A stretch of 40,113 nt of DNA, taken from UHGV virus genome UHGV-0369821, one strand, 5' to 3'. How positions within the stretch are numbered: position 1 is the first letter of the stretch; every line of letters starts with the position of its first letter. The notes beneath the pieces are model-generated. The model was given only the letters and a program-made list of their open reading frames with translations, was not told where the DNA came from and did no database searches. The position numbers and the translations under genes are program-made. This DNA is from a virus. Positions 1 through 22,162 of this stretch are shown here, piece by piece.

Positions 1-2
1 TC

Positions 3-2513: not shown

Positions 2514-2517
2514 ACAA

Positions 2518-4089: not shown

Positions 4090-4178
4090 ATCTTTATTTA
4101 TTATTAGAATCTATATCTCTCATACATATTTTATCAATAATGACTATGATTCCACACGTGATTATAGTCATAACAACA

Positions 4179-5057: not shown

Positions 5058-5080
5058 GCAATATTTTTCTTTTTTTTTTC

Positions 5081-5110
5081 TTGCGTATGACAGGTGACAT
5101 GTCTATAAAT
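5081..5110 (+). promoter_or_regulatory. candidate sigma70-like promoter in a divergent intergenic region
   Basis: TTGCGT, 17-nt spacer, TATAAA. Only a weak match to the -35 consensus. Confidence 0.25.
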
Positions 5111-5503: not shown

Positions 5504-5512
5504 AAAACGAAA

Positions 5513-6145: not shown

Positions 6146-6242
6146 GCAAAACAATAAGTAACACGGAATAAGATTGTTATAAAAAAGCCCTGTAGCCATT
6201 TTCGTAGGCTACAGGGCTTGAATGCCGGATTTTTATGACAGA

Positions 6243-6932
6243 CTATTGCACCCTCTTTTCAGGTATTAAAACGTTATTTAATGAATAGTATTTTTTTGTA
6301 TAGTGATATTTTTTAGAATACTTTGAATAACCTAAATTGTGATTGTAGTAAAGTTCATCTCCATACGATGAACAAGTGTATTTAGCATTATACTTTAGAT
6401 AAGAAGAGTTAGAGAAATAGGCAATTTTATTTTTATCTGGTCTTTGAAAATCGCCATAAAAAAGCATCTCTCCTTTTTTCCAAAATACAAATTTATTTGA
6501 GCCGAGGACGGCATTAACCATGTTGTCTATATCGTCATTGTTTTTCTGGATGCAATACTCACCAAAAGCTGGCAAAAATAGGTATCGGAAAAAAGTTTCG
6601 CTATCTGTTAGATCGTCTTTGTTTTTAATGCTCAAGATTCCATTATGGCAAAAGTACCAGCCATTTCCATTCCAGCCATGAACGTTTTTTTCTGAAATTG
6701 AGCCATGCGTTTTGATGCGAGCATGCAAGAGGACAACATAATCTTTTGGGATTGTGTTCCACAAATTAACAATTTCTTTTTTTAAAAGGGTACGAATAAA
6801 ATATTCTGGCTTTTCTTGGCATGTACCTCTTTTAAATGCGGCTAAAAAGAAGCCGTCAGGGTTGTTTGTGATGCAATTTTGAAAATGTTGATTGCCAATA
6901 TCTTTTTTGATTCCGTACGCGATAATACACAT
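6243..6932 (-). CDS. Ntn-hydrolase / class-II glutamine amidotransferase-like protein (GATase_4-type)
   Basis: The protein begins MCIIAYG, with Cys2 as the predicted nucleophile after Met removal, as in MCGI of GAT-II enzymes. It sits next to an amidoligase gene, a conserved pairing described for this family. Confidence 0.5.
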   Translation of the reverse strand: MCIIAYGIKKDIGNQHFQNCITNNPDGFFLAAFKRGTCQEKPEYFIRTLLKKEIVNLWNTIPKDYVVLLHARIKTHGSISEKNVHGWNGNGWYFCHNGILSIKNKDDLTDSETFFRYLFLPAFGEYCIQKNNDDIDNMVNAVLGSNKFVFWKKGEMLFYGDFQRPDKNKIAYFSNSSYLKYNAKYTCSSYGDELYYNHNLGYSKYSKKYHYTKKYYSLNNVLIPEKRVQ

Positions 6933-6947
6933 ATTGTTTTTTCTAGT

Positions 6948-7253
6948 TTAGTTTTTTCCGTATTTATCAATGATAGATTTAACGCCTAGAGTTAATTCTA
7001 GGGCTAATTTTTCTTCTTCTTGTGTTTCGTAAAATATTTTTATGAAAGTATATTGCCATTGAGGTGAATATGACATTTTCATGCCTTTTTTGATTAAATA
7101 GTTTATGACGTCCTGCCTTATCTTTCCAAATGTTTCTGCTGATAGTGTTTTTTTGTAAACATTTACAAATTCAATGTTTAAACTGCCAACCAAGGAAGAG
7201 ATGCAACACTCTAGCTTTTTCTTCTCCATTGTTGTATCGGTTTTCTTCTTCAT
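6948..7253 (-). CDS. hypothetical protein
   Basis: 101-aa ORF between the Ntn-hydrolase and amidoligase genes. Confidence 0.45.
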   Translation of the reverse strand: MKKKTDTTMEKKKLECCISSLVGSLNIEFVNVYKKTLSAETFGKIRQDVINYLIKKGMKMSYSPQWQYTFIKIFYETQEEEKLALELTLGVKSIIDKYGKN

Positions 7254-7341
7254 AGGCCGATTGCGTATAAAAAACTAATCCAAATTATTGCACCAGCAAT
7301 TAAAACAATTAAATCTTCTATTTTTTCTTTTATTTTTTTAT

Positions 7342-8592
7342 TCATATATTTTCGAGTAATTTATATAATTCTTTTGTCATACATTTTTCTCTTAGAAAAG
7401 ATATATATTTCGGAGCAATCTCCTTTAATTCTAATAATGATATTTCTCTATTCTCCATCGCGAAGAGATAAGTAAAGTAGCAAAAATCTACTATTGTTTT
7501 AATCCTTTCTTTTTTGACTGTTCCCTTGCCCCTCCTAAATTCTATTGTGGCATTATTACTGAAATTTAATTCACAATACCTATTATTCGAAATTTTATCA
7601 AAGAGGAGCTTTTGGCCTTTTGGGGATGCAGAAATAGGGTGGACGCCGTATTGTTTTAGCTCACAAACACCCGGAATTGTGAAACAGTATTGATTGTTAT
7701 CTCTTCCAAATATTTTATTAACCAGTTCGTAAGAAAGAGAGTAAAAACATTTTTTCAGCAAAAGTTCTACACTTCTTTCACACTTGATTCGTGAAACGTG
7801 AACATGTAGCCCCGTTTCTTTAGTTGATTGAGAATAAGAGCCGAATAACGGGAAAAATTCTTCGCATAGCAAATCAATAGCTCCATTTTTTTTCAACAAT
7901 GATTCAATAGGCAAAGGTCGGGTAGTTAGTTCTGTTCCTCCTCTTTCGTCACGTAAGGAGCCGTCATGCTGGAAGTAAAAAAAATTAGAAAACTTATTGT
8001 AAATAGAACGGTTTTGGTGATAAAATTCTATTTCCAACCCTACAAGGGGAGCTTTTAGGGTTGAGTTTTCAGGGATCCAACCATGAGGCCGAAAGTGGTA
8101 TCCGTTCATTTTTGTTTCTATCAAGTCTTTTTCCGAAAAATCACTTATAAGGAACTCCTTTGTGCTTAAATATCTCAAAGCCGGGAAGACATGCTCTATT
8201 ATATAACTCCACTCTTTTTCCGGGATTTGTTTTAAAGTGAAGGCATCTAAGAAGCACTTAAAGATTTTTATAAAATCACTAGAGTATTTTTGTTTTTGGT
8301 TTAGCTCTTTGTCGGGAACTGGAATTATTGTTTGAGAAAAAAAATTACACATTGCCCATAGAGTTGCGTTCCTTATCAATTTAAAATTTTTTTTCTCAAG
8401 CACAATCCCGTTTAAATCTTTAACTCCTGCAAACCGCAAAAAAGCGGTTGCTTTTCTCCTTCTTAAATACAAGTCCTTTGCTTGTTGCGTCTTGTAGCCA
8501 AAATCAAAAATTTTATTTTCACAAAACAAATAGTAATTCTCTCTTACAAATTGTTTCAGAAATTCTACTTTATCTTTTTCTTTTTTATTCAT
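7342..8592 (-). CDS. amidoligase (glutamine synthetase / GCS2 carboxylate-amine ligase-like, Amidoligase_2-type)
   Basis: LVGLEIEFYHQN (E-x-E metal site), FQHDGSLRDERGGTELTTRPL and ETGLHVHVS (H-x-H) match conserved blocks of YbdK/GCS2-like amidoligases. Confidence 0.6.
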   Translation of the reverse strand: MNKKEKDKVEFLKQFVRENYYLFCENKIFDFGYKTQQAKDLYLRRRKATAFLRFAGVKDLNGIVLEKKNFKLIRNATLWAMCNFFSQTIIPVPDKELNQKQKYSSDFIKIFKCFLDAFTLKQIPEKEWSYIIEHVFPALRYLSTKEFLISDFSEKDLIETKMNGYHFRPHGWIPENSTLKAPLVGLEIEFYHQNRSIYNKFSNFFYFQHDGSLRDERGGTELTTRPLPIESLLKKNGAIDLLCEEFFPLFGSYSQSTKETGLHVHVSRIKCERSVELLLKKCFYSLSYELVNKIFGRDNNQYCFTIPGVCELKQYGVHPISASPKGQKLLFDKISNNRYCELNFSNNATIEFRRGKGTVKKERIKTIVDFCYFTYLFAMENREISLLELKEIAPKYISFLREKCMTKELYKLLENI

Positions 8593-8593
8593 G

Positions 8594-9166
8594 TCAAATA
8601 ATGATTCGGAGGTTTTCGTTTTTAGTATTCAGACCTGAATAAGTTTTCCATATGTCTCCAATAATTGAATTAGAATCGTGCAGTTTATAAAAGATATTTT
8701 CGCTCAAATTCACCAACAACCCTTTTTTTTGTAAAATAATCCCACATTTTTTATAGTATTTTAGAGCTAAAAATTTGTTTGAAGAAAAGGCCCTAGTGAT
8801 TGGATAGCTACTATTTAGTTTTTTTTCCTCATATTCGGGGAAATGGCCTAGGGCCGGTTTTGTTTTAAAACGGGCAGATGATAGCGGTTTAACCCCAACA
8901 ATATAAACACCGGCGTTTTTTTTCCCGCCAGAAGTCCTAAGAACCGGCAAATAACCTAAAGTGTTTCCAAAAACAAAAATAGGGCTGATAAGCGTTTTTT
9001 GAGTTGTACCGGTATCTAAATTTTCTATTTTCGCGAAAAAATAAACGCTAATAAAGGATTGTAGGTCTCTAATTACAGAGCAATCATCTTGAGCGTGAAT
9101 GGTTCCAGAATAAGCGGGAATTCTGCTTTTCGCGGTCCTGTATAGTTTTATTGAGTATTTATGCAT
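8594..9166 (-). CDS. hypothetical protein
   Basis: 190-aa ORF. Its stop lies 2 nt from the amidoligase start. Confidence 0.5.
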   Translation of the reverse strand: MHKYSIKLYRTAKSRIPAYSGTIHAQDDCSVIRDLQSFISVYFFAKIENLDTGTTQKTLISPIFVFGNTLGYLPVLRTSGGKKNAGVYIVGVKPLSSARFKTKPALGHFPEYEEKKLNSSYPITRAFSSNKFLALKYYKKCGIILQKKGLLVNLSENIFYKLHDSNSIIGDIWKTYSGLNTKNENLRIII

Positions 9167-9178
9167 GTTTTTTTAGAG

Positions 9179-9595
9179 TTATTCCCCGTAAAGGAATTTT
9201 TTTGTGTTTAAAATTTCACCTTTATATGAAATTTTAAAATCTTTATTTTTCTCTACGCATAAGTGCGCATGAAGGAAAGCTTGCTCTTTTGTTAGTTTTA
9301 TTGTTCGTGAGGGCAGGAACATAAATTTTTCTTCTAAAGCTTTATGCCAAATTTCATTTATTTCTCCAAATATCACTATTCCGAGACAAGGATAATGTGC
9401 TTTTTCTTTGATTTGTATTTTTCTGTTTTTTTGCAAAATAAAAATTAGGCCTTTCTCTGTTTTTTTTAGTTCTTTAATTATTGTTACAACAGATAAAACG
9501 CTTCTTTTATTTTCTTTTAAAAAAATAATGATATGTGTTTTTTTTATTATTATTTTTTTTGAAGCATCTATAATGTTTTGAATTTCAACATTCAT
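9179..9595 (-). CDS. hypothetical protein
   Basis: 138-aa ORF, first of four overlapping small genes. Confidence 0.45.
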   Translation of the reverse strand: MNVEIQNIIDASKKIIIKKTHIIIFLKENKRSVLSVVTIIKELKKTEKGLIFILQKNRKIQIKEKAHYPCLGIVIFGEINEIWHKALEEKFMFLPSRTIKLTKEQAFLHAHLCVEKNKDFKISYKGEILNTKKFLYGE

Positions 9596-9878
9596 CGAGC
9601 GTCAAGGTTTTGAAGTTAAATCTATATTCTAATCCGTCCTTTAAAGGAGCCTTCCTAAAATCGCTCAATAAGTCTCCTTCGGGGCGGTTTTCTAGGCGAA
9701 AAATGAGCTTTCGAGGTTTTTTGGAGACGTCAAAAACCTCAATAATTGAGCCTAATCTCCAATCAGCTTTTATCATGCGGTGAAAGGTTCTAAGCCCGTG
9801 TGAAAAATTTAAATAAAGAACAGGGCAAACACGCCTTTCTTCTTGAGGGTTTTCAAACTCAAATTCAAAAACTTTCAT
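9585..9878 (-). CDS. hypothetical protein
   Basis: 97-aa ORF that overlaps its neighbour by 11 nt. Confidence 0.45.
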   Translation of the reverse strand: MKVFEFEFENPQEERRVCPVLYLNFSHGLRTFHRMIKADWRLGSIIEVFDVSKKPRKLIFRLENRPEGDLLSDFRKAPLKDGLEYRFNFKTLTLDEC

Positions 9879-9882
9879 AGCT

Positions 9883-10230
9883 TCAAAAATATGCGAGATT
9901 ATAAAAAATTAAATTTTCAAAAGGTGTTATCTTGTGCCATTTTATATAAATTCCAACTATTTCCGTTTTTGGTTCAAAGTGGTAATTATAAATAAATTCC
10001 TTAAAATATTTATCTTCTTTCTTTTTTATTATTTCTATAGCATTAAATCTGATGCCGTTTAGCAAATCTATTAGTATTTTTTGTTCCAAAACGTTGGATA
10101 AGTTTTTTTTAAGCTGATATATTCGCCCTTGTTCTTCAAGGCTGATTTTTCCTTTTAGCTTTAAGTCTGTGTCTTTTCCTAAAAAATAGGCGACGGCTCC
10201 AAAATTTGTTGTATAATCAATAGAACTCAT
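9883..10230 (-). CDS. hypothetical protein
   Basis: 115-aa ORF. Confidence 0.45.
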   Translation of the reverse strand: MSSIDYTTNFGAVAYFLGKDTDLKLKGKISLEEQGRIYQLKKNLSNVLEQKILIDLLNGIRFNAIEIIKKKEDKYFKEFIYNYHFEPKTEIVGIYIKWHKITPFENLIFYNLAYF

Positions 10231-10510
10231 ATTCCCTTTTCAAAAAAAACATATTGCTATAGTTAACGTCATAAAACAGTGAATTTCTTTTTTTCAAAAT
10301 CTCTTCAAAGGATGATTTGCTTCTTTTTTGCTCTTCTATCATTGCGGATTCAGGGAAGGCATGAGCAAAATCAATATGCGCTTCGAGGTTTGGCAATTCC
10401 TCCCCCGTTACTGGTCCTGCAAAGATAAAATAAATATTAGCGCGAACGAAAACAAAATACTTATCTTCTCTCTTTTTTTTAAAAACTTTCACAATATGTT
10501 TAGCGTCCAT
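10217..10510 (-). CDS. hypothetical protein
   Basis: 97-aa ORF that overlaps its neighbour by 14 nt. Confidence 0.45.
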   Translation of the reverse strand: MDAKHIVKVFKKKREDKYFVFVRANIYFIFAGPVTGEELPNLEAHIDFAHAFPESAMIEEQKRSKSSFEEILKKRNSLFYDVNYSNMFFLKREYEFY

Positions 10511-10702
10511 TAAGTGCGAAATTTACATGGTTAAAAAATTCTTCAGGCGATAAAAAAGTAAAGATAGTCTCGTAAGTCTTCTGCCTCCGTTACTAATTCC
10601 AAAGCGTATTGTTTTACGCCTTTTTTCCATTTAGTTCGGGCGGGGCTTTTCAATATTTTTTTATTACTTCTTCTCTGTTGTTTTTTCATTTTATTTTATT
10701 CT

Positions 10703-10942
10703 TTATTTTATTCTTTTCTTCATGCCTTTTACTAACTCGCTCGCCCGTTTATAGACGTTATCCTTAGTTCCTACGACAAAGGTTTGCCAACCGCAATTCA
10801 TGCACCCGTATTCATAACTTCCCTTAGGATTCTGCAATGTCTCATAAACCAAAACGTCCATCGGAAGCCAGCAAAATGGGCATCGCAACTTTTTAAATTT
10901 CTCTTGTTTCTTTTTTCCCATGTTTTTTGTTTTTTCTCTCAA
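10703..10942 (-). CDS. zinc-ribbon protein
   Basis: CPFCW...CMNCGW gives two CxxC pairs in 79 aa. It is the first gene on the minus strand leaving the divergent hub. Confidence 0.5.
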   Translation of the reverse strand: MREKTKNMGKKKQEKFKKLRCPFCWLPMDVLVYETLQNPKGSYEYGCMNCGWQTFVVGTKDNVYKRASELVKGMKKRIK

Positions 10943-12030
10943 GGGGTCTTTCTCTATTCTTCCTTCCGTCCCCTTTCATGTTTTTATTCTATCTTTTTTC
11001 CCTCATAAGTCAACAACTTTTATTTCTTTTTTTCTCAATTAGCAAGTTTTTTTCTCTCCCTCTAACCTCTTGACAAACTGCTTTTTCCTCTCTCCCTTCC
11101 CTCCTCTTTGCCTTACTTCCTCCCTCGGGGGGGGCCTTTAGGGGGGGGGCAACTCCTAACTCCATCGGATAACTCCATCCTTTTTCTCGATGCGGCTTCT
11201 AACCTCTTCCCGCTCCTCTTCGCTCTCTTGACCTTTCCATCGGTCAGGAGGGCGTAAGGGGCGTAAGCGGGGGAGTTAAACCCCGGCCGGGACGAACCAG
11301 TTTGCCCTCTTCCTTAAAAATGGTTTCTCCCATAGTGGACCCTCTTTTGCCATTTTTACGTGTTTTTTTAGGCGGATCCGTCATAAGTAGCAAACTGTTA
11401 GAGGCTAGCGAATTTTAAGAAAACCTGTGTTCCTAGGGCTTGCCAAAAATCGGGTTTTGTGCATGTTTCATGTTTATTTTCTCTAGATTGTCTCGCTCTT
11501 GAGTGTTTTTTGTAGAGCCTCGGCGATTCGGTGCGTGCTTTGAGCGGCCTTCAAACTGGCTCAAAAGCGTACCGATTCCGTTGCATTTGGGCGCCTTCTG
11601 CCTGCTTCTGCTTGTGTGCGCACCGACAATCTTCATAACTCGTTGACTGTCTATCATACTTCGCATAACACACATAATGCCAAATAGGGCACATTTGAGG
11701 ACAATCCCGAATATCGCGCTACAATGGGCCTAGCGCGCGCCGCATATCTGCCATGAGTAATGTATAGGCCCATCCTCTAAAAAGCCCGTGTGCGCAATCC
11801 TCGCAAGCCGTTTTTCGGGCAAATCGTAGTAATTAGAATAATTATTGAGGTTTTGCCCACTTTAGGCCATGTTGCGGCGTTGCTTCGGAGCCACCTAGCC
11901 ATGAGGGACTGCAAGCCCGTCAGCACCGCGCCACCCCTAGGTGCTTCTTGCTAGGACGTCCCTACAGGCGGGAGGCGGGGAAAAATCGCCGGGTGTTTCG
12001 CGCTGGACAAAGAAGGTATCACCCTGCATA
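10943..12030. promoter_or_regulatory. 1-kb non-coding divergent hub: CT-rich tract, G8 and G9 runs, GC-rich core with a 9-bp inverted repeat; candidate divergent promoters and origin
   Basis: No credible ORF. Transcription direction and purine/pyrimidine skew both switch here. G8 at 11127-11134 and G9 at 11141-11149. Inverted repeat ATGGGCCTA (11724-11732) / TAGGCCCAT (11765-11773). Confidence 0.5.
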
Positions 12031-12492
12031 ATGAGCAAAAAGGGAGAAGAGAAAGAGAACAAAGAAATGGCGAGAAGAGCAGGAGACGTAGAGATGAACG
12101 GGAAATTAGTGAGAGAGTTGGTGGAAGAAGTGAGGGGGGAATTGGAGCGAGGGGAGGTGAGGACGGTAGAGGAGGCGTTATCGAAGCGAGGAGTGAGCCG
12201 GAAGCTGTTTAGGGAGATGGGAGGGATAGAGGAGTGGAAGGGAGAGAGGAGGAGAGGCGAGAGAGGAGGAGAGGAGCGGGAAGAGGTAGAGGAATTGGGG
12301 AAAGAGGAATTGGGGAAGTTTTTAAGTAGAGTGATAAGAGGGAGGGAGCTAGGGATGGGGGGAAAGGAGAAGATGAGTGCGGTAGGGTTGTATATGAGGT
12401 TGAAGGGATGGGACAAGGTGAAAGAGGAGAGGGAGGAGCTGGTAGGAGAGGAGATGAGAGAGTTGCTGAAAAAAGACAAAGAGAAGAGTTGA
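12031..12492 (+). CDS. highly charged (E/R/K/G-rich) low-complexity protein encoded almost entirely by purine codons
   Basis: In this frame, third positions are A/G except where the amino acid forces a pyrimidine (Asp, Asn, Phe, Tyr, AGY Ser). T and C fall at position 2 for Val/Leu/Met and Ala/Thr. That frame-specific pattern argues for real coding. Confidence 0.45.
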   Translation: MSKKGEEKENKEMARRAGDVEMNGKLVRELVEEVRGELERGEVRTVEEALSKRGVSRKLFREMGGIEEWKGERRRGERGGEEREEVEELGKEELGKFLSRVIRGRELGMGGKEKMSAVGLYMRLKGWDKVKEEREELVGEEMRELLKKDKEKS

Positions 12493-12526
12493 AGAAGAGG
12501 AGGAGGAGAGATAAACTAAAGAGGAG

Positions 12527-13168
12527 ATGAGAAAAGGGTTGGACGAAGTAAAGATAAGGAAAGAAGAGCTGGAACATGGCTTTTTGAGGGGGGTGAAGGA
12601 GATGGTGAGGCAGAAGGTGGAGATGGGGTTAATGCCATGGGGGCGGCGGGTATTTTATCCGAAGATGGTATTGAGGGCGAGGCCGCAGAAGTTGAGGGAT
12701 TTTTTGATAGAGGAGGAGGTATGGGAGTTGCAGGAATGGAGCAAGGATTCATTGGAGAGCAATCCTGAGCGGCACCATTTGTACGAATGCGGAGGGAGGT
12801 ATTATATGGGATTGTACTTTAAGAGTACGAGGGGGCGGAGCATAAGGAGGAAGATAAGTTTAGGGACAAGGGAATTGGAAGAGGCGAAAGAGAGGAGGGA
12901 CGAGTTTTATAAAGAGTGGAGTGGGAAGGGATTGAAATGGTATATGGCAGACGGGGCGAAATGGAATATGAAGTTACCGGGAGTGCCGGAGGTAGGAGAG
13001 TTGAGCAAATTAGACAAAAGGGCGCGGAAGGAGACGGAAGAGGCGGCGGTACAGGCGTTGAAGGAAGCGCGGGAGAGTTGGAAGAGGATGAGGTGGGAGC
13101 AAGTGAGGAAGGAGGAGTATTGGGAGGCAGAGGAGAAGAGGAGCCGGAGTTTAAGGAAATGGAAATAG
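12527..13168 (+). CDS. charged protein with an integrase-type / AP2-like DNA-binding motif
   Basis: GGRYYMGLYFKSTRGRSIRRKISLGTRELEEAKERRDEF resembles the three-strand-plus-helix integrase N-terminal / AP2 DNA-binding module. No recombinase catalytic domain follows. Wobble positions are purine-forced. Confidence 0.5.
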   Translation: MRKGLDEVKIRKEELEHGFLRGVKEMVRQKVEMGLMPWGRRVFYPKMVLRARPQKLRDFLIEEEVWELQEWSKDSLESNPERHHLYECGGRYYMGLYFKSTRGRSIRRKISLGTRELEEAKERRDEFYKEWSGKGLKWYMADGAKWNMKLPGVPEVGELSKLDKRARKETEEAAVQALKEARESWKRMRWEQVRKEEYWEAEEKRSRSLRKWK

Positions 13169-13179
13169 GAGGTAAGGAG

Positions 13180-13377
13180 ATGGAAAAAGAAGTAGGAATA
13201 ATGGTAAAGTTTGGGAAAGGAAGGGTAATGGAACTGCATTTGTTTCCGAACAAGGAGGCAATGAGGAAGTGGCGAGGAGAGGACAGCGAGCAAGACGCAG
13301 AGGGGGAGTACCGGGAGTGGAGCGTACCGTTGGGGGTGATAGAGGACTTATGGGCGGCGGCGATGGGAGAGGAATAA
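13180..13377 (+). CDS. small hypothetical protein (65 aa)
   Basis: AGGAGGT lies 7 nt upstream of ATG 13180, immediately after the stop of the preceding gene. Wobble positions are purine-only. The upstream part of the listed 12916 ORF overlaps gene 12527-13168 and is treated as spurious. Confidence 0.4.
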   Translation: MEKEVGIMVKFGKGRVMELHLFPNKEAMRKWRGEDSEQDAEGEYREWSVPLGVIEDLWAAAMGEE

Positions 13378-13401
13378 AAAATTAGAATAATAATAAAAAG
13401 T

Positions 13402-13968
13402 ATGAAAATAATCGTAGACATAGGGCATGCGCGGAACACAGGAGCGCGAGGGAACGGGCTGGAAGAGCACGCAGTAAGCGAGGAGATAAGCAAAGAGTTG
13501 GTGAGGGAGTTAAAGGCGGCAGGGTATGAGGTAGTTGAGTTGGACTTTCCGCACCTTAGTAACGCGAAGGACTTGGAAGCGACGATAAAAGAGGCGAATC
13601 GGATGGGTTCGGATATAGGAATATCGTTGCACTGCGACAGTGCAAGTCATTGGGTAGGAGGGGAAGAAGAGGCGAACCCTAAGCCGCATGGAGGGCATGT
13701 GTGCTACTATCCTGGGAGCAGTAAGGGGAGGAAGTTGGCAGAGGCGGTAGGAGTGCGTCTTAGCGGGCTATTGCCTGGGCGAGCAGAGGCAGTGGTAGGG
13801 AGGAAGGACTTGGCGGTATTGAGGCGAACAAGGCCGGTATGGATATTGTGTGAGTGTGGATTTATAACGAATCCGGGAGATGCGGAGGTGATGAGGGAGC
13901 ATCCGGAGAAGATAGCGAGGGCGATAAGCGAAGGAGTGAAGGATTATTTGAAATATGCAAGAGATTGA
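13402..13968 (+). CDS. N-acetylmuramoyl-L-alanine amidase (Amidase_3 family) endolysin
   Basis: MKIIVDIGHARN (cf. IVIDAGHGG), GYEVVEL, DIGISLHCDSA (cf. ADLFISIHAD), VLRRTRPVWILCECGFITNPGDAEV (cf. VLR.T..P.VLvE.GFisN..D). No signal peptide. Confidence 0.85.
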   Translation: MKIIVDIGHARNTGARGNGLEEHAVSEEISKELVRELKAAGYEVVELDFPHLSNAKDLEATIKEANRMGSDIGISLHCDSASHWVGGEEEANPKPHGGHVCYYPGSSKGRKLAEAVGVRLSGLLPGRAEAVVGRKDLAVLRRTRPVWILCECGFITNPGDAEVMREHPEKIARAISEGVKDYLKYARD

Positions 13969-14446
13969 TAAAGAGGGAGTTGGAGAGCTTGTGCACAGCA
14001 TTGCGCACGGGGACAAGTGGGAGGAGGTTGAGGACAGGAAGAGTTGTTGCGTATGGGTAATGAGGAGCAAGGACAAGTTTCTTGTGAGGGAGGGGGTATT
14101 AAAGAAATGGCCGAAAAGGGGCTGGAAGGGGCGAGCATTAAGCAAAGGAGGGAAATGCTATGCGCAATCGGCAGACAGCATATTGAAGGAGGCAGAGGTA
14201 GAATGGGAAAGGAAGCCGGAGTATGCGCACATGTACTATAGCGGGATGCTGGGAGGAAAGGCGGCGAAAGACGCGACGTGTTTTTTAGAGGAAGCCAGAG
14301 TATTTAAGATGCCATTGCCGAGGGGGAGGTATAACAGCGATGCGTGGGAGTTTGTAAGGTGCCGTCTTGTAGAGGAAGTGGTAGAGAAGCCGATGGACGA
14401 CGAAATGGACATTTGGTTGAAGTACAGGAGGGACAAATGGTTTTAA
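13955..14446 (+). CDS. candidate terminase small subunit (by position and translational coupling)
   Basis: 163-aa ORF ending in ATGGTTTTAA, which overlaps the start of the large terminase. No motif-level support. Confidence 0.45.
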   Translation: MQEIDKEGVGELVHSIAHGDKWEEVEDRKSCCVWVMRSKDKFLVREGVLKKWPKRGWKGRALSKGGKCYAQSADSILKEAEVEWERKPEYAHMYYSGMLGGKAAKDATCFLEEARVFKMPLPRGRYNSDAWEFVRCRLVEEVVEKPMDDEMDIWLKYRRDKWF

Positions 14447-16017
14447 GTGAAATAATAGAGTTGCTGAAAGACCCGATGTGGCGAATATCCCATTTGTATG
14501 AGATAAAATTGACGGATGGGAACATCATTCCTTATAAGCCGAGGAAGTTTCAGGAGGAGCTTCACAGGGCCTGTTACTGTGAGGGGAAGAGGAGGTTTTT
14601 AATACCTAAGAGTAGGCGGCAGGGTTGCTCTACGGCGATTGGAGTGATGATGGCTGACATGGCGGCGTTTGAGGAGGGGTGGAAGCTGGCTTTGGTGGAC
14701 AGGACGTTAGGAGACGCGACGGAAAAGCTTACGGACATTGTGAGGGTAGCGTTGGACAGCTTGAAGAGGAAATTGCCTGGGATGTTCGACATAAGTTACA
14801 GCAAATCAAAGATAAACGTTAAGATGGTAGGAAGGAGGTCGAGCGAGATAGTTGGGGGTAAATATTTTCGAGGCAGTGGTCTTGGATTTGCGCACATATC
14901 CGAGCTTGGTACGATTGCGACCAGTGAGCCGAAGCGAGCTGCTGAAATCGTCAACGGCACATTCCCTGCGGCTAAGGATGGCTTTATCTTTGTGGAGACG
15001 ACCGTACGAGGGGGGAAGCGAGGGGTATTCTATGAGAACGTGATGAATGCGCTAAGCGTGCCGGAGGGGAAGCGAGGTGAGAAAGATTTCCATGTAGTGT
15101 TTTTGCCGTGGTGGAGCGACGAGAATAATATATCGGAGGGGGTGGAGGAGATAACGCCAGCTACGGAGAGCTACTTTGAGACGCTTAGGAGCAAGAGCGG
15201 GATTGTCGTGACGGAGGCGCAAAAGAGGTGGTGGCAACAGGCCAAGCGGCAACATGGCGTATCAATGAATGAAGAGTACCCGTCCACCTTGGAAGAGGCT
15301 TTTGAGGTCCCTATGGAGGGGGCTATCTTGGAGGCGGTGTTGGACAGGGCCATGCAGGAGGGGGCTTTCAGGAACTTGGTTTACGATAAAACGAAGCCGT
15401 GTTATTGCACATGGGATTTGGGTGCGCCCCTGAATACGATTAACCTTGTGTTTCAGTTGGACGGCCCCTTTATTAACGTCCTTGAGCTGGACAGTGGTTT
15501 GCATGCGAGCGAGCGCGTAGCAGAGCGTGTAACGAGGCTTAAAAGCAAATATCCGACCTTACAGGCGAACTTCCTTCCGCATGACGGCGGGTATATGACG
15601 GACACAGGGATGACACAGGCGCAAATGTGGCAGGAGGCAGGGTTGCCGGGCATCCAGTTGTTGCCCAAATCGAAAGACAAATGGATTGGCATCAATTACC
15701 TTTTAGGGATGTTCAACATGTTTCGGTTTGACACCAACGGTACGAGCAAAGCGTACAGTTACTGGTTGTCCTACAGGTGCAAGCCGGAGGTGGGAGAGGG
15801 AGGCGTGTTTAAGAATGAGATTGTACATGACAACGCATCCCATTGGGCAGACCCGTTGAGGTATGTTGCAGAGGCGAGGATGAACAACCTGTTGACGGCA
15901 GGAGTTGTAACGCAGGACAGCAAAGCCGGGATAACCTGTACCTTTGGGAAATATCATCGTGAGCAAAATGTTGGACATAACTGGCGGCGGGGGTTTGAGC
16001 ATACTTGCCGCATCTGA
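14437..16017 (+). CDS. terminase large subunit
   Basis: Deviant Walker A KSRRQGCST (cf. SRQLGKT of T4 gp17) and Walker B-like VVFLPWWSDE. Size and position upstream of the portal fit. The longest ORF begins at 14344, but the ATG at 14437, coupled to the upstream stop, is preferred. Confidence 0.8.
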   Translation: MVLSEIIELLKDPMWRISHLYEIKLTDGNIIPYKPRKFQEELHRACYCEGKRRFLIPKSRRQGCSTAIGVMMADMAAFEEGWKLALVDRTLGDATEKLTDIVRVALDSLKRKLPGMFDISYSKSKINVKMVGRRSSEIVGGKYFRGSGLGFAHISELGTIATSEPKRAAEIVNGTFPAAKDGFIFVETTVRGGKRGVFYENVMNALSVPEGKRGEKDFHVVFLPWWSDENNISEGVEEITPATESYFETLRSKSGIVVTEAQKRWWQQAKRQHGVSMNEEYPSTLEEAFEVPMEGAILEAVLDRAMQEGAFRNLVYDKTKPCYCTWDLGAPLNTINLVFQLDGPFINVLELDSGLHASERVAERVTRLKSKYPTLQANFLPHDGGYMTDTGMTQAQMWQEAGLPGIQLLPKSKDKWIGINYLLGMFNMFRFDTNGTSKAYSYWLSYRCKPEVGEGGVFKNEIVHDNASHWADPLRYVAEARMNNLLTAGVVTQDSKAGITCTFGKYHREQNVGHNWRRGFEHTCRI

Positions 16018-16687: not shown

Positions 16688-18313
16688 ATGCTGTACAACA
16701 ACCAGTTACCAAAGCAGAAGAGGGAACAGCTCTATTCGTATAGACAACGCTATGTGTCTAACTGGCAACGAGTTGCGGAGTACGTAGAGCCGGACCGGAG
16801 GTTTAACCTGAACGGGGCTGTGCAGGAGGCTACTCCTAACAATGAGGCCTATATTGACACGACCCTTGAGCGAGCCTTGAGGCTGAACGCAACAGGCCAG
16901 CATGAGCTTGTGATGCCCAAAGCCAGCGAATGGTTTACGTTTACTCCACAAGCTAAGGCGGCAGATGCTGACGAAGTAAGTTCTACTATTGAGGACGAGT
17001 ACGCCCTGACGGCAAGGGTAGTGTCCATGTTCATGAGGAACAGCAACCTGCATACAGCCAGCGAGCTTTTCTTCTGGGACAGGGCGGCTTATGGGATTGG
17101 AGCGTTTTGGGCAGAGTGGGACGCGAAGCAAAAGGGGTTTAATTTTTATTCTATACCAGTAGGGACATTCATGGTGGACAAAGACAAATTTGGCCGGATG
17201 AATATGTTTTGCTGGGACGACTGGATGAGGAACCAAGACATTGTGGCTACGTTCCCTGAGGGTAACTTGCCGCAAACTGTTAAGGATAAGTATATTGCAA
17301 ACTCCAACAGTCCGGACAACTACCTTGTGTTCCACTTGTTGGAGCGAGTGGAGCGCACAGGAGATGAAGGACTTGTGAGGCGAGCCAAAGGAAAAGAGTG
17401 GGTGCTTCGTTCGGTGTATGACGCTACAGGAGACGTATTGCTTGAGCAATTCTTTGAGCAATGCCCCGTTATCTGTTGCAACTGTTTTGATTTGCCTAAC
17501 TCCCCGTATGGATATGGGTTTGGGAAGGTTTCATTGGCAGACCAGATTGAATTGGTTAATTGCCTTAAGGCTTTGGCAGAGGCGGCCCAACAGAAGATTT
17601 TCCCGCCGATGCTTGTTCCGGAAGGATTTCAGGGTAATATCGGATATGGAGCGGGCGAGGTAACGACCTTTAACCCGTTGAACATTCAGGCAAGGCCGTC
17701 GCCCCTGTTCCAGCAGTCAGCCCAAACTTCCGATACCCAATGGCAAATTGAGCGTTTTGAGCGTGTCATCAATGAGGCGTGCGACGTTAATTTGTTCATG
17801 CCGTTGTTGCAGGTGAAAGACCCGCAATACATGAAGGCCACGGTAGCGCAGATGATTGAATCCTACTCTGCCCGCATCAGCTCTACGGCGTACACGAGGC
17901 TGATTGAGCAATTCTTGCGGCCATTGGTTGACTTCTGTTATAATACGCTGGTAGCTCAAGGGTATATTCGTCCCCTGCGTGAGTATCACATCCAGTTCTG
18001 CACGCCGTTCCAGATTCTTTTGGATAGGCATCAGCCGACGTTGTTCACAGAGTTCCTGCAAACGGTTGTCATTCCTCTGTCTCAAATTGACCCGACGGTT
18101 CTTGATTCATTGGATGCTAACTATATTTTCCGAAGAAGCATGCTTGATATTGGATTGTCGCCCAAGTATGCTAGGCCTCAAGCTAAGGTGAACCAGATGC
18201 GAAAGGAAAGGGAGGCCGCCCAAAACGAAGCCAACCAGATGGCAAATGCCAAGACATTCTCCGAAGTGCAGAAGAACCTCGGCGCGGCATCCAAAGACAT
18301 GAATATCATTTAA
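16688..18313 (+). CDS. portal protein (by synteny and size)
   Basis: 541 aa, immediately after the terminase and before the scaffold and capsid genes (T7 gp8 is 536 aa). No motif confirmation. Confidence 0.65.
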   Translation: MLYNNQLPKQKREQLYSYRQRYVSNWQRVAEYVEPDRRFNLNGAVQEATPNNEAYIDTTLERALRLNATGQHELVMPKASEWFTFTPQAKAADADEVSSTIEDEYALTARVVSMFMRNSNLHTASELFFWDRAAYGIGAFWAEWDAKQKGFNFYSIPVGTFMVDKDKFGRMNMFCWDDWMRNQDIVATFPEGNLPQTVKDKYIANSNSPDNYLVFHLLERVERTGDEGLVRRAKGKEWVLRSVYDATGDVLLEQFFEQCPVICCNCFDLPNSPYGYGFGKVSLADQIELVNCLKALAEAAQQKIFPPMLVPEGFQGNIGYGAGEVTTFNPLNIQARPSPLFQQSAQTSDTQWQIERFERVINEACDVNLFMPLLQVKDPQYMKATVAQMIESYSARISSTAYTRLIEQFLRPLVDFCYNTLVAQGYIRPLREYHIQFCTPFQILLDRHQPTLFTEFLQTVVIPLSQIDPTVLDSLDANYIFRRSMLDIGLSPKYARPQAKVNQMRKEREAAQNEANQMANAKTFSEVQKNLGAASKDMNII

Positions 18314-19932: not shown

Positions 19933-20925
19933 ATGGCAAATTACGGAAACTTCCAGACGCTTGCTGTAAACGAGTACACGCCCATGATTTATGCGGCTGT
20001 TCAGCAGACGCGTTCCCACACGGAGCGTTTCATGAGGGTTTACGGCATGAATTCCAGACAGCGCAGGTTCCAAATCATTGACCCTGTGAACTCCACTCAA
20101 ATCACCGACCTGTATGGCGCGACTAACCCGCAACAGGCCGAGTTCCGACAGAGGTGGCTTAAGACGAAAATCTTTAAGTCCACTCATGAAATTTCCCGCA
20201 CGGAAATGCAACAGGCTGGAACCATTGATTCCCCTCTGCCCCGTATCGTTGACGCCGAACGCATGGAAATGCAACGCCGTCGCGACATGGTTGCGGTTGA
20301 AGGCCTCATTGGCACGGCATGGACTGGTGAGAACGGGGACATCCCTGTGACGTTTAACGAAAAGGCAAACACTATCCCTGTGGGATATGTGCGGACTGGC
20401 ACTTACGTTGCGTCCGGTCTGACCTTTGACAAGATTGTGCGGGCCAAGACTATCTTCGGCATGCGCAACGTGCTTGGTCAGGATGTGGAACGTCAGGACT
20501 TGGGCGGCCCCGAAATGGTGATTCTGTGTACGCATGAAGAACTGGCTGCTCTGTACGGCATCAAGGAATTCACGAATATCCTTTACTCCGACCAGAGACC
20601 CATTGCCAGTGGCTATATTGACAACGTGCTTGGCGTCCGCTTCATTGCTCTGACGGCCGACATGCTCCCGTTTGGCAGTCGTCCGCTTGGTGATGCGACC
20701 GACCCGACCAATGGTAATAGCACGGCAAACGTACGAAGCCTTGTCGCTTTCACGATGAACTCTGTTGCCTTTGGCGTGCTTGAAGAGTTGTTCGTGCGAA
20801 TCGAAGAGCTTCCGACCAACCAGTATGTATGGCAGACCTACTCTGAAATCGCAATGGGCGCGACCCGAATCGAAGACAAGGGTGTGCTCAAGATTGACGT
20901 GGCGGGTTCTTCCGGCAACTTCTAA
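19933..20925 (+). CDS. major capsid protein
   Basis: 330 aa following the scaffold gene. The N-terminus MANYGNFQTLAVNEY resembles MSMYTTAQLLAANEQ of lambda gpE-type capsid proteins. Similarity is judged by eye only. Confidence 0.7.
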   Translation: MANYGNFQTLAVNEYTPMIYAAVQQTRSHTERFMRVYGMNSRQRRFQIIDPVNSTQITDLYGATNPQQAEFRQRWLKTKIFKSTHEISRTEMQQAGTIDSPLPRIVDAERMEMQRRRDMVAVEGLIGTAWTGENGDIPVTFNEKANTIPVGYVRTGTYVASGLTFDKIVRAKTIFGMRNVLGQDVERQDLGGPEMVILCTHEELAALYGIKEFTNILYSDQRPIASGYIDNVLGVRFIALTADMLPFGSRPLGDATDPTNGNSTANVRSLVAFTMNSVAFGVLEELFVRIEELPTNQYVWQTYSEIAMGATRIEDKGVLKIDVAGSSGNF

Positions 20926-20950
20926 TCCAACATAGAAAGGCAAAAAAGTT

Positions 20951-21493
20951 ATGGCAGAATATCCTTCTGTAGCAAAAGCGCAGGTTGAAGCCGGGATGCC
21001 TCCGTATTTGAGTGCACAGCTTCAACGAGGACAGGTCTTGAAAAAGACGATTGTGTACAAGGCAGGGGCTACTGAAACCCCTGCGTCTTCGACGATTGTT
21101 GACCTTCCCCTTCCTCCGGGAGTGGTGATTGACGTTTCCTCAATCGCTCTGACGCATGACGGGGTGGGTGCGGGTACTTACTCGCTCAACATCCAAGTTC
21201 TAGACAAGGCGGGTAATGCCAAATATTCCGGAACCGGAATGTTGTCTTTGACGGCAACTGCAACCGCAGGAGAAATTGTGAGAGTTACCTCTGCTTCCTC
21301 ACTATCCCCCGCCGGTGCAATGATTTTTGACCCAGCGCAATATCTTGTCGATAATGGTATCAATATTGACGGGGAAGGGATTACCTACGAACGCCTGAAA
21401 GAGAAGTACAATATTGCTTGTATCGTCTCTAATACTGCGGCTATTGCGGCCAATAAATCTCTCACCATTGTCATGGACCTAATCATCCCCTAA
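20951..21493 (+). CDS. hypothetical structural protein (minor capsid/decoration candidate)
   Basis: 180-aa ORF between the capsid and tail genes. Confidence 0.45.
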   Translation: MAEYPSVAKAQVEAGMPPYLSAQLQRGQVLKKTIVYKAGATETPASSTIVDLPLPPGVVIDVSSIALTHDGVGAGTYSLNIQVLDKAGNAKYSGTGMLSLTATATAGEIVRVTSASSLSPAGAMIFDPAQYLVDNGINIDGEGITYERLKEKYNIACIVSNTAAIAANKSLTIVMDLIIP

Positions 21494-21505
21494 TCTGAAA
21501 AAACA

Positions 21506-22162
21506 ATGACTGACCTTGATATAGCTAACTACGCTTTGGGGTTGCTTGGACAGTACAAAATCCAGAGCTACCCGGAAGTAGGGAAAAAGTCAGTAGAAGG
21601 TCAGGCATTAGAGGCATATCTTCCATTCGCTATTCAAGACGTGATGATTGATGGCGAATGGAACTTCGCCCGGAAAAGGGTAATCATTGAGCCGTCACCG
21701 ACAGAGGTGGCGGCCTTTGGTTATCATAACGCTTTCCCGAAGCCTGACGACCTAGTGACAATAATCTCCGTAAATGGGGAGCCTTGGAATATTCAGGCGC
21801 AGTTTGTGCAGATTGAGGGAGAGTATATCTTGGCAAACGTTGACCAGTTAAGGCTGGTTTACATTGCCTCACCTACGGATGGCACAACGCTTCAAGGGAT
21901 TCCAGACCAGTTAAAACCATTGGTAGGGATTCGATGGGCCTATCTTATCTGTGTTCGGATTACCAACAACATTGAGTTGTACAACATGATAGCGGACATG
22001 TACCAGAGGGAATTGCACCGAATGCGTGATAATGACTTCATCAACAACACGGGTGGACGCTACAACTACCGCAACAAGCTCATGAGCCAGTCCACTTGGG
22101 GCCGCTATCCATTTGGGACGACCGCCCCATATCACGGTTCTCCCACTTACATCCCAGACTAA
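21506..22162 (+). CDS. tail tubular protein A / adaptor-like protein (T7 gp11-like, tentative)
   Basis: The N-terminus TDLDIANYALGLLGQYKIQSYPE is patterned like T7 gp11 [23 protein letters not shown]. Position precedes the giant tail protein. Confidence 0.45.
   Translation: MTDLDIANYALGLLGQYKIQSYPEVGKKSVEGQALEAYLPFAIQDVMIDGEWNFARKRVIIEPSPTEVAAFGYHNAFPKPDDLVTIISVNGEPWNIQAQFVQIEGEYILANVDQLRLVYIASPTDGTTLQGIPDQLKPLVGIRWAYLICVRITNNIELYNMIADMYQRELHRMRDNDFINNTGGRYNYRNKLMSQSTWGRYPFGTTAPYHGSPTYIPD

Follow-up and report, generated by a model that had tools for sequence, protein, structure and literature searches.

Purine Bias and Late Transcription in Described Systems

A purine excess on the sense strand along the direction of transcription, seen in third codon positions as well as in the choice of amino acids, is the subject of Szybalski's rule and of Forsdyke's purine loading. 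Known purine loading is genome-wide and mild, amounting to an excess of a few percent, with about 55–60% purine in thermophiles. The virus genome UHGV-0369821 analysed here (the window, 40,113 nt) carries an excess of the same kind but of another order, with 82% purine overall and 96–100% at four-fold degenerate sites; unlike purine loading, it is limited to the first 2.4–5 kb after one promoter-like site, where it appears as a step followed by a gradient. No published description of a late operon with such a pyrimidine-poor start was found in the literature.

Purine-rich RNA paired with pyrimidine-rich DNA forms the most stable class of hybrids, and runs of at least four G seed R-loops. The regions known for R-loops (immunoglobulin class-switch regions, CpG-island promoters, the origins of ColE1 and phage T4) resemble the window in having a G-rich non-template strand downstream of a promoter, a length of kilobases and a thermodynamically favoured RNA:DNA hybrid. 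The window differs from them in avoiding G-clusters, in being coding under purifying selection and in having relatives that are skewed over the ~12–18 kb sampled. The retroviral polypurine tract, a non-coding element of 15–20 nt, is likewise a purine-only RNA segment whose DNA hybrid is of special stability; the window, however, presents 2.4 kb of genes and involves no reverse transcription.

With regard to function, the nearest parallels are the antitermination systems of phage λ (Q) and HK022 (put RNA), which do the job proposed below for the window, namely to keep the host polymerase going along a long operon transcribed from a single late promoter. Late operons of the λ Q type also share with the window the placement of lysis and packaging genes first. 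The proposed means is different, being the bulk composition of the transcript, and we know of no described mechanism of antitermination that works in this way. Finally, the sites used by Rho (rut) are rich in C, poor in G and marked by spaced 5'-YC dimers (PMC6144790). They lie on the same nascent-RNA axis as the window (C versus G, YC density, lack of structure), of which the window occupies the inverse end, with no segment of C>G for 1.9–3.8 kb across five lineages and YC dimers depleted five-fold. If the reading based on Rho were true, the domain would act as an anti-rut region.

Composition and Coding Status of the Domain

The extreme domain (12040–14436, plus strand) comprises five genes with the spacers between them, preceded by a short leader. 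It follows directly on the single conserved promoter-like site of the window, and over 2.4–5 kb the coding strand is almost free of C and T. Positions 12031–12500 contain A.357, C.047, G.466 and T.130, that is,.823 purines and a GC skew of +.82, in full agreement with the extreme bias that the earlier note had reported from 12031 onwards. This purine content stands at a z-score of 5.4 relative to 470-nt segments taken outside 11.5–18.4 kb (mean.510, sd.059, maximum.626). The purine fraction is.73 for 12031–14500, ~.60 in terL, ~.55 in the portal gene and ~.54 in the rest, against.46 in the left 11 kb. The domain as a whole has A.32, C.10, G.41 and T.17, its spacers are made of purines only, and across 2.85 kb not one 78-nt segment has C>G, the first such segment occurring at 14888, inside terL. 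The GC content of the domain is unchanged, G standing in place of C and A in place of T; the bottom strand is ~41–47% C.

At the codon level, the purine fraction at four-fold degenerate third positions (R4) is.84–1.00 (84–100%) in the five domain genes (12.0–14.4 kb), compared with ~45% in the structural genes. By kilobase it falls from.97 to.91,.70 and.66, and it lies between.37 and.60 beyond 16 kb. T makes up 0–10% of the four-fold sites in the domain. The choice among synonymous codons follows the same trend, with higher fractions in the domain than in the structural genes for Ile ATA (.83 vs.24), Arg AGR (.73 vs.52), Ser AGY (.86 vs.32) and Leu TTR (.77 vs.42). The claim that third positions are nearly all purine, ATA and AGR included, is thus upheld, and the codon data also support the view that pyrimidines are kept mainly where the protein forces them. 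Serine is encoded by AGY, with one pyrimidine, rather than by TCR, with two, which places the bias at the level of the nucleotide and not of the tRNA. The proteins themselves are affected, Glu, Arg and Lys being doubled and Thr, Gln and Asn depleted five-fold. The genes have no internal stops, and their dN/dS values relative to a lineage of 91% identity are 0.13–0.32; these values, together with an Amidase_3 match, indicate that the domain genes are real, as expected from the earlier description of the region as frame-consistent coding and not junk or random hypermutation.

The first gene, gA (12067–12492, plus strand; R4.98, dN/dS.13), encodes 141 residues rich in Glu, Lys, Arg and Gly and has homologues in all lineages. 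No match to it was obtained in Pfam, PHROGs or PDB, and its AF2 model (pLDDT 64) matched no fold; by eye, its C-terminus carries a weak terS-like motif. It is followed by gB (12527–13168, 213 residues; R4.96, dN/dS.31), without a family match in Pfam, PHROGs or PDB sequences, and by gC (13180–13377, 65 residues; R4 1.00 with n=22, dN/dS.28). The endolysin gene (13402–13968) encodes an N-acetylmuramoyl-L-alanine amidase (Pfam Amidase_3, 1.7e-23; phrog_435, 4e-36) and has R4.90 with C.00 at four-fold sites. The fifth gene, gE (13955–14446, 163 residues; R4.84), overlaps the start of terL and is a terS candidate by position; its earlier assignment as terS found no support in Pfam, PHROGs, PDB sequence search or structure prediction. 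In terL (14437–16017, phrog_2 match, 30% identical to terL genes annotated in phages of Ochrobactrum and Ralstonia) the bias is intermediate, with R4.63 and G.45 vs C.16 at four-fold sites. It is nearly gone in the gene of the T7-type head-tail connector or portal (16688–18313, Head-tail_con 2e-49; R4.56), and R4 reaches.41 in the scaffold and.38 in the capsid gene. All these genes lie on the plus strand and belong to the rightward operon for packaging, lysis and structural proteins of a ~40-kb podovirus; the domain is the part of this operon nearest the putative promoter. Named homologues of the amidase come from Akkermansia and Akkermansiaceae, and the host is probably an Akkermansia-like bacterium. 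The phage is common in the gut.

Dense G-clusters with G-quadruplex potential, also attributed to the domain by the earlier note, could not be substantiated. Runs of at least four G are under-represented (19 vs 28.8 expected, z=-3.75), GG is below expectation and only one canonical G4 motif occurs in 2.4 kb; a search for motifs repeated in the manner of TerS or Chi sites gave none. The avoidance of G-runs and the lack of a recurring motif argue against G-quadruplex or Chi-like readings. The corresponding RNA is predicted to fold weakly: its minimum free energy per 150 nt is -16 kcal/mol, whereas other regions of equal GC reach -36 to -41, and it has 1.96 YC dimers per 100 nt vs 9.6.

The Promoter-Like Element and the Non-Coding Hub

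At the start of the domain, a sigma-70 scan (10/12 matches) revealed a promoter-like element (11977–12032, plus strand) composed of GGGGAAAAA (11977–11985), GGGTGTT (11991–11997), TGGACA (12004–12009), AGAAGGTATC (12011–12020) and CATAAT (12027–12032). It occurs once in the window, and the motif was found in six of the seven lineages examined, the search pattern not finding it in L039. Wherever the motif is present, C drops from.23–.32 in the 150 nt upstream to.01–.09 in the 150 nt downstream, with C exclusion on the sense strand beginning within ~10–20 nt of the element. The 182-nt leader of L009 is down to C.016 and is A-rich, not G-rich. The match to the consensus and the conservation make the element a candidate promoter, but its most conserved part, AGAAGGTATC, sits in the would-be spacer, so that an activator or pac site is an alternative reading. 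The gA reading frame also opens at 12031, which the putative -10 overlaps, and for this reason the true start is probably the ATG at 12067.

Upstream of the element lies a non-coding hub of ordinary composition (11261–11976; purines.47) that separates the divergent arms and where the cumulative GC skew has its minimum. Alignment of six lineages showed near-invariant blocks at ~11628–11685 and ~11800–11860 within what is otherwise a hypervariable mosaic that breaks assemblies; the hub gave no Rfam match and no significant RNA fold. On its other side, a non-coding tract that is CT-rich on the plus strand, and purine-rich on the minus strand, extends over 10943–11260 and contains a G8-CCTTTA-G9 motif (11127–11149), both conserved in L009, L004 and L012. 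This tract had been described as a mirror of the rightward domain. Its composition is real (purines.29), but it is not a simple mirror, because most of it is located upstream of the predicted leftward promoter (TTGACT-16-TAGAAT, 10986–11013, minus strand; 10/12 matches in a sigma-70-like consensus scan), which precedes the first leftward gene (ATG at 10921) and has a counterpart in L009 (TTGACA-N17-ATTATA). No avoidance of C is seen in the leftward early genes. Matches among left-arm proteins include a DnaC-like loader, a PD-(D/E)XK exonuclease and RuvC.

Recurrence of the Gradient in Related Lineages

The positional gradient recurs in seven related lineages that differ in gene content and have saturated dS. 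Over 52 genes, the pooled Spearman correlation between bias and position is -0.86; with gene order conserved, this value does not separate the effect of distance from the motif from that of gene order. Five lineages have no 78-nt segment with C>G for 1.9–3.8 kb, and the share of such segments is at most 10% in the first 4–5 kb vs ~15–60% later. Depending on the lineage, terL has an R4 of.61 to.89. The amidase gene is informative in this respect: inside the domain its R4 is.83–.90 in the window, L009 and L031 and.60–.75 in L038 and L039, it is.47 (unbiased) in a sister lineage that carries the gene at the distal end of its operon, and.30–.35 in Akkermansia Mu-like prophages. The bias depends, therefore, on position and not on the gene. 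The earlier proposal of a polar bias anchored at the hub and fading through terL and portal is borne out by the step at the element and the decay in seven lineages.

In more distant relatives C is avoided over longer distances. The prophage relative L027 has C.02–.05 and G.70–.81 in most genes over ~18 kb sampled, and L030 shows the same avoidance over its sampled late operon. Genes of Akkermansia prophages, taken as a proxy for host codon usage, have wobble C of.38–.58 (L034, L036 and the structural genes of L037, an unrelated Akkermansia prophage in which the latter show.37–.55). Relative to this host-like usage, L027 represents a swap of C to G at constant GC3. Among the genes of the window, L027 and L030, the capsid gene ranks at or close to the top in C use. 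The specificity for pyrimidines varies by lineage, with U retained in L018, L027 and L030, and L018 being G+T-rich at four-fold sites. C avoidance extends over the ~12–18 kb sampled in the more distant relatives, one of which is an Akkermansia prophage. The family trait is therefore C avoidance at constant GC content, and this points to a general transcript property over a device specific to an origin or a pac site. The lineage of the window excludes T in addition, wherever the protein permits and also in leader and spacers.

Possible Origins of the Bias

The bias has stayed in place although synonymous divergence is saturated, and is thus upheld by continuing pressure. This pressure is most likely selection, considering that transitions leave purine content unchanged and that single-stranded DNA damage would favour other bases. 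As the favoured but tentative explanation, with marked reservations, we propose that selection acts on the nascent late RNA to make it proof against termination and secondary structure. A transcript free of C would offer no loading sites to Rho, and one without C and U could form neither GC hairpins nor U-tracts, hence neither intrinsic terminators nor hairpin pauses, leaving the RNA essentially unstructured. Such "antitermination by composition" would let the host RNA polymerase that starts at a single late promoter cross small genes, probably weakly translated, and reach the long structural operon. The bias would ease where heavy translation shields the RNA and host-preferred C-ending codons are favoured, as in the scaffold and capsid genes; the high C use of capsid genes is expected from this trade-off.

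The step at the motif, the C-poor non-coding leader and spacers, the high R4, the lack of C>G segments, the low YC density, the weak RNA structure, the dependence on position and the C avoidance of the relatives support antitermination by composition, and no antiterminator protein or structured RNA was identified. Against it, purines at four-fold sites reach 96–100%, beyond what Rho would impose, as Rho needs several YC dimers together and selection on a single C or U should weaken at low density. That saturation would be explained by escape of a pyrimidine-stripped transcript from a C- or U-specific endoribonuclease, which could be a host housekeeping enzyme, a defence or toxin RNase or a host-shutoff RNase of the phage: each pyrimidine would be an independent cleavage site with a constant cost, a cut near the 5' end would expose everything downstream, and a C-specific enzyme would tell phage from host, whose proxy genes are C-rich at wobble positions. 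We consider this rather unlikely, because no candidate RNase was identified in the window, other mRNAs of the clade (left arm, distal late genes) are unprotected and the specificity varies, U being tolerated in three lineages. Nor is the decay within 5 kb a direct prediction of antitermination, given that premature termination anywhere in an essential 25-kb operon should be costly; the translation trade-off or internal promoters would be needed, and the leftward early genes and the CT-rich tract are not accommodated. A decay of this shape, smooth over ~5 kb from a GC4 skew of.94 in the first kb, resembles the length distribution of R-loops, whose stable hybrids on a G/A-rich non-template strand might prime or load replication, recombination or packaging near the hub. 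The position of the skew minimum and the hybrid-minus-duplex energy (-0.22 kcal/mol per step in 12040–13400 vs -0.05 in the background, from nearest-neighbour parameters) are in keeping with such a zone, as is the absence of DNA polymerase, primase and helicase among left-arm proteins with matches, although an initiator may be among the many left-arm ORFs without annotation. The scarcity of G-runs and GG, the A-rich L009 leader and the five proteins under purifying selection, which must be translated, make it unlikely, and G>>C over the ~12–18 kb sampled in L027 and L030 cannot be an origin device. Distinctly less probable is a role at DNA ends, in which the element would be pac, headful ends and terminal redundancy would thin out rightward, and structure-free resected tails, free of C or, on the complement, of purines, would anneal and circularise the genome efficiently. 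The bias is indeed unidirectional, anchored beside the terminase genes and decays over ~5 kb (10–12% of the genome), the phage encodes an exonuclease and RuvC, and nine related contigs end within ~1 kb of the hub or domain start; but these ends differ (8672, 8719 and 8812 in L018 coordinates), the hub breaks assemblies by its mosaic nature, no TerS or Chi repeat was detected, and C avoidance across the sampled L027 and L030 regions is left unexplained.

Strand-asymmetric mutation, driven by transcription, R-loops or resection and not by selection, is very improbable, even if the polar decay resembles transcription-linked mutation profiles and L018 has its G+T-rich pattern. Purine enrichment requires transversions; C-to-U changes on an exposed top strand would enrich T, which is rare at four-fold sites, an exposed bottom strand would lose the C in which it abounds, and L027 shows a C-to-G swap. 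Divergence among close relatives forms a patchy mosaic and not a mutation-rate gradient, and dS, although saturated, is much the same within the domain as beyond it. There remains a cassette acquired horizontally from a purine-loaded donor, one of the possibilities raised by the earlier note, which would fit the abrupt compositional boundary at 12.03 kb. Its probability is negligible and we reject it: seven lineages share the positional gradient in spite of saturated dS and unlike gene content, the core genes terL and portal take part in it, and the amidase family is biased only in the domain position. Of the earlier interpretation as a whole, the coding, polar and hub-anchored bias stands, while G-quadruplexes and the donor cassette do not.

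Genome organization and probable host

The window holds essentially the whole genome of a podovirus (~40 kb), with two divergent arms on either side of a non-coding hub at 10.9-12.0 kb. The right arm encodes a T7-type portal, a Phage_capsid_2 capsid, the large terminase subunit (terL) and two giant proteins, and the leftward-transcribed left arm carries genes for RuvC, a PD-(D/E)XK exonuclease, a DnaC-like loader and an amidoligase. GC content is ~.28-.46 (mostly.28-.41) in the left arm (1-11000) and ~.39-.54 (mostly.43-.53) in the right arm (12000-36000). A DNA-level search of GenBank phages gave no match. The named homologues of the endolysin come from Akkermansia and Akkermansiaceae. A terL of 48% identity sits in an uncultured Akkermansia MAG, within a prophage; a 34% homologue comes from Prosthecobacter. 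These homologies point to Akkermansia or a relative as the host, a genus of medical interest with few characterised phages. At 90% identity, the terL of this phage falls into a cluster of 1,128 sequences, and the phage thus appears common in public data.

A purine-rich domain that remains coding

The extreme purine excess that the earlier note described on the plus strand from 12031 onward is borne out by base counts, the segment 12031-12500 having.357 A,.047 C,.466 G and.130 T, which corresponds to.823 purines and a GC skew of +.82. These first 470 nt of the domain stand 5.4 sd above 470-nt windows taken outside 11.5-18.4 kb (mean.510, sd.059, maximum.626). The purine fraction is.73 over 12031-14500, ~.60 in terL, ~.55 in the portal gene and ~.54 beyond, with.46 in the left 11 kb, and GC skew ranges from +.77 to +.48 across 12-14.5 kb. 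The CT-rich tract reported at 10943-11260 also exists (purines.29). At synonymous third positions, the preference for A or G proved stronger than first put: the purine fraction at four-fold degenerate third positions (R4) is.98,.96, 1.00,.90 and.84 in the five successive genes of 12067-14446 (gA, gB, gC, the endolysin gene and gE). It declines downstream to.63 in terL,.56 in the portal gene,.41 in a scaffold-like gene and.38 in the capsid gene, being mostly ~.45 (range.37-.57) in the remaining late operon and ~.25-.60 in the non-domain genes of the window. An assembly or sequencing artefact was rejected, as IMG/VR, ENA and Logan assemblies each yielded the domain independently, its ORFs intact.

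The bias reshapes both codon choice and protein composition. Compared with the structural genes, the domain favours ATA for Ile (.83 vs.24), AGR for Arg (.73 vs.52), AGY for Ser (.86 vs.32) and TTR for Leu (.77 vs.42), and its proteins have doubled Glu, Arg and Lys and five-fold depleted Thr, Gln and Asn. Nevertheless, the domain is still coding, as had been claimed: its ORFs have no internal stops, their dN/dS is.13-.32 against a lineage with saturated dS (NG86 estimates, rough at such composition), and one clearly encodes an Amidase_3 endolysin. The start of gA is probably the ATG at 12067. No match was obtained for gA, gB, gC and gE in Pfam or PHROGs, nor for gA and gE in a PDB sequence search. 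No support was obtained for a small terminase subunit (terS) in the domain, since the ORFs 13955-14446 and 12067-12492 matched no terS family in Pfam, PHROG or PDB sequence searches and their single-sequence AF2 models (pLDDT 37 and 64) gave no fold match, which leaves synteny as the sole argument. On the minus strand, spurious long antisense ORFs of 180 and 224 aa occur at 11937-12479 and 12819-13493, because the pyrimidine-rich strand lacks stop codons, and they can deceive gene-calling programs. Genes outside the domain (for example those starting at 16688, 19933, 20951 and 21506) mostly lack an upstream Shine-Dalgarno sequence and have only A-rich leaders.

The bias begins at a conserved promoter-like element

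In the lineages examined, the domain is directly preceded by an element of the form GGGGAAAAA-N5-6-GGGTGTT-N11-13-AGAAGGTATC-N5-7-YRTAAT or GTAAAAAAT, which was not found in one lineage (L039) with the search pattern used. In the window it occupies 11977-12032 (+) and includes a predicted sigma-70-like promoter, TGGACA-17-CATAAT. In lineages with the element, the C fraction is.23-.32 over the 150 nt that precede it and drops to.01-.09 over the following 150 nt. The lineage at 91% (L009) has a 182-nt non-coding leader after the element with.56 A and.016 C, and the intergenic spacers within the window's domain are made of purines only. The bias cannot, therefore, be put down to protein composition, given the biased leader and the purine-only spacers, and its onset coincides with the expected start of a transcript from the predicted promoter.

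The hub itself contains further conserved features. Inside the CT-rich tract, G8-CCTTTA-G9 (11127-11149, +) is kept with small changes in L009, L004 and L012, and may form a G-quadruplex, bind a protein or be a homopolymer pair prone to slippage. Two near-invariant non-coding blocks (~11628-11685 and ~11800-11860) are conserved between lineages with saturated synonymous sites, the latter holding a hairpin-like GGGCAAA...TAATTAGAATAATTATTG...TTTTGCCC; both are candidates for an operator, an origin or a pac site. An Rfam search of hub and domain returned nothing credible, with no match for the near-invariant blocks, and the RNA fold of the hub was not significant (z=-0.3). Nine related contigs (L013, L016, L017, L011, L007, L031, L002, L019 and L005) end at most ~1 kb from the hub or domain start, without sharing one nucleotide, which reflects either a nearby physical DNA end or assembly breaks in a hypervariable, compositionally extreme region. 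When the window is compared with L001 and L002, blocks of 20-29% divergence appear at 20750-21749, 23750-24249 and 11250-11749, the rest differing by 0-2%; this is recombination mosaicism, affecting capsid-proximal genes, a 1430-aa gene and the hub.

Composition follows position rather than gene

The polar pattern is common to seven lineages (the window, L009, L018, L020, L031, L038 and L039) whose terL identity to the window ranges from ~66% to ~91%, with variable amplitude and reach. Across 52 genes pooled from the six motif-bearing lineages, which are not independent points given the kinship of the lineages and their conserved gene order, R4 correlates with distance from the motif with a Spearman coefficient of -0.86. 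GC skew at four-fold sites is.94 in the first kb and then.86,.63,.34,.09 and -.07 in successive distance bins to 9 kb. The R4 of terL is.61-.89, depending on lineage.

The endolysin gene provides the cleanest control for position versus gene. In the window's clade it is found ~1.4 kb from the domain start, with R4 values of.83-.90 (three lineages) or.60-.75 (L038 and L039). In the sister lineage, represented by L018, L014 and L035 (the same phage, 97-99% nucleotide identity), a homologue 55% identical to that of the window is located at the distal end of the late operon, with an R4 of.47. In Akkermansia Mu-like prophages, endolysin genes have R4 of.30-.35 and C of.55-.58. In L035, a TnpB gene (OrfB_IS605/Cas12f-like) is inserted at 8676-10004, just before the distal endolysin gene. 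As dS between lineages is ~1 or more throughout, the composition must be a maintained equilibrium and not a relic. The suggestion that the domain is a horizontally acquired cassette from a foreign donor was ruled out on these grounds, composition tracking position and not genes (amidase R4.90 vs.47, terL.61-.89) while dS is saturated; we give it practically no credence, and it was ranked last together with mutation bias.

Probable selection on the nucleotide content of the sense strand

Strand-asymmetric mutation bias is also a very improbable explanation. Transitions leave purine content unchanged, and hence the deamination behind ordinary skews cannot produce the pattern. Exposed-strand C-to-U damage, oxidation and depurination would raise T on the top strand, where T is 0-10% at four-fold sites, and exposure of the bottom strand should deplete its C, which is 41-47%. 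Divergence among near-identical relatives gives no support to a mutation-rate gradient, forming a patchy mosaic of 0% blocks beside 20-29% blocks. The wrong bases for damage and the lack of a divergence gradient therefore favour selection on nucleotide content. The preference of Ser AGY over TCR and the biased non-coding parts place the pressure at the nucleotide level, and a tRNA or wobble-level explanation was rejected for these reasons, the phage moreover encoding no tRNAs.

Several candidates for the selected feature could be discarded. The G-clusters and G-quadruplex potential invoked in the earlier note did not survive comparison with synonymous shuffles: runs of at least four G are under-represented (19 vs 28.8 expected, z=-3.75), runs of at least three G occur as expected, the GG odds ratio is.91, below expectation, and G4 motifs (G3+N1-7 x4) number 1 in 2.4 kb vs.5 expected, without enrichment. 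A k-mer search (k=5-8, second-order Markov expectation, five lineages) disclosed no recurrent enriched word that could act as a Chi-like or TerS-binding repeat, only single conserved coding words. Selection for the Shine-Dalgarno-like GGAGG, in the sense of ribosome recruitment, was likewise rejected (30 seen vs 34 expected), as was avoidance of restriction palindromes as a sufficient driver, 6-bp palindromes being down only ~two-fold. The remaining candidate is the bulk lack of C, here also of U, on the sense strand.

This lack has consequences for the transcript. Loading sites of the Rho termination factor (rut) are defined by windows with C>G and by YC dimers (PMC6144790), and the domain is the compositional inverse of such a site: 78-nt windows with C>G are absent for 2.85 kb in the window (1.9-3.8 kb across five lineages), YC dimers are five-fold depleted, and (YC N9-13)x4 motifs number 0-1 per kb vs roughly 0-16 later. 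At unchanged GC, the domain RNA is almost unstructured (-16 vs ~-38 kcal/mol per 150 nt elsewhere), and the RNA:DNA hybrid is favoured over duplex DNA by ~0.2 kcal/mol per step in a nearest-neighbour estimate.

C avoidance as a family trait

In more distant relatives, which have all genes on one strand, C is avoided at four-fold sites over very long stretches. L027 (equivalent to L033), a prophage in an uncultured Akkermansia MAG, shows an extreme GC3 skew, with C of.02-.05 and G of.70-.81 in most genes of the ~18 kb sampled and T and A near host-like values, and L030 shows the same avoidance from the start of the late operon (2449) to the end of the ~12 kb sampled. Unrelated Akkermansia prophages (L034, L036 and L037) use C heavily, L037 having a similar capsid and portal. 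Because L027 and L030 avoid C and the unrelated prophages use it, the trait common to this terL family is the replacement of C by G on the sense strand, GC3 staying constant. In the window's clade, this replacement is confined to the first 4-5 kb and is accompanied by a T-to-A swap, T being retained in the L018 lineage. In the window, L027 and L030, C is used most, or nearly most, in the scaffold and capsid genes.

Possible functions of the bias

The reading ranked first, which we hold tentatively, is that the composition shields the late transcript from termination and from folding. With C (and here any avoidable pyrimidine) kept out of the first part of the late operon, the transcript would be invisible to Rho and unable to form terminator and pause hairpins, and the strength of the bias would be balanced along the operon against the need for adapted codons. 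This reading was put first because it accounts for the abrupt onset at the promoter-like site and the bias of the leader, for C being the base chiefly avoided and for the long-range trait in relatives, and because it agrees with the avoidance of long G-runs and the weaker bias of the most highly translated genes. More doubtful is the broader proposal that an Akkermansia-type podovirus family uses bulk composition as a regulatory device, an "antitermination by composition" that would replace Q- or put-type factors, with temperate relatives having much or all of their genome written without C. A termination-proof transcript has its weak points: the bias decays within 5 kb although the essential operon is 25 kb long, the early genes lack protection, the tract rich in C and T that lies upstream of the leftward promoter is left unaccounted for, and purine purity at synonymous sites is near-absolute. 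This last feature is better explained if a pyrimidine-poor transcript serves to evade nucleases, a possibility that we consider unlikely; no RNase candidate turned up in the window.

An R-loop device would suit the gradient, the thermodynamics and the strong positive GC skew downstream of the predicted promoter, and the domain does resemble R-loop-prone switch regions except for G-clustering; however, G-runs are avoided instead of enriched as seeds, and the coding load of the domain and the long-range skew in relatives also speak against it, so that we rate it lower still. A role in packaging (pac) or terminal redundancy appears improbable: it would agree with a decay that runs over 5 kb to one side only and with contig ends that cluster around the hub, but these ends do not share a single nucleotide position and L027 is left unaccounted for.

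Relation to known strand asymmetries

The domain is of the same kind as transcription-oriented purine loading and GC skew, the purine excess of the sense strand running with gene direction (purines.73-.82, R4.84-1.00). It differs in being larger, anchored to one site and graded, that is, neither genome-wide nor modest but limited to ~5 kb past that site. To our knowledge, synonymous sites with 96-100% purines over more than 1 kb of real genes are far outside the known range of strand asymmetry, and literature searches for an earlier description of such a domain returned nothing relevant. The natural controls are unusually clean, comprising the abrupt onset at a conserved site, the gradient that follows, a gene that is biased or not according to location, and sister clades in which the trait is local or extends across the sampled genome. 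They make the function of transcript purine loading and GC skew directly testable, the candidates being Rho evasion, RNA structure, R-loops and nuclease evasion. In practical terms, tracts of this type can fragment assemblies, lead gene callers astray and bias host prediction from codon usage.

Two further observations concern genes outside the domain. In the early arm, the amidoligase-like gene (7342-8592, minus strand) adjoins a gene weakly similar to class-II glutamine amidotransferases (6243-6932, minus strand); pairs of amidoligase and glutamine amidotransferase have been associated with protein or nucleic-acid modification. Inside the 1430-aa gene, a perfect 36-nt direct repeat is present at 25179-25214 and 25251-25286, the copies being 72 nt apart.
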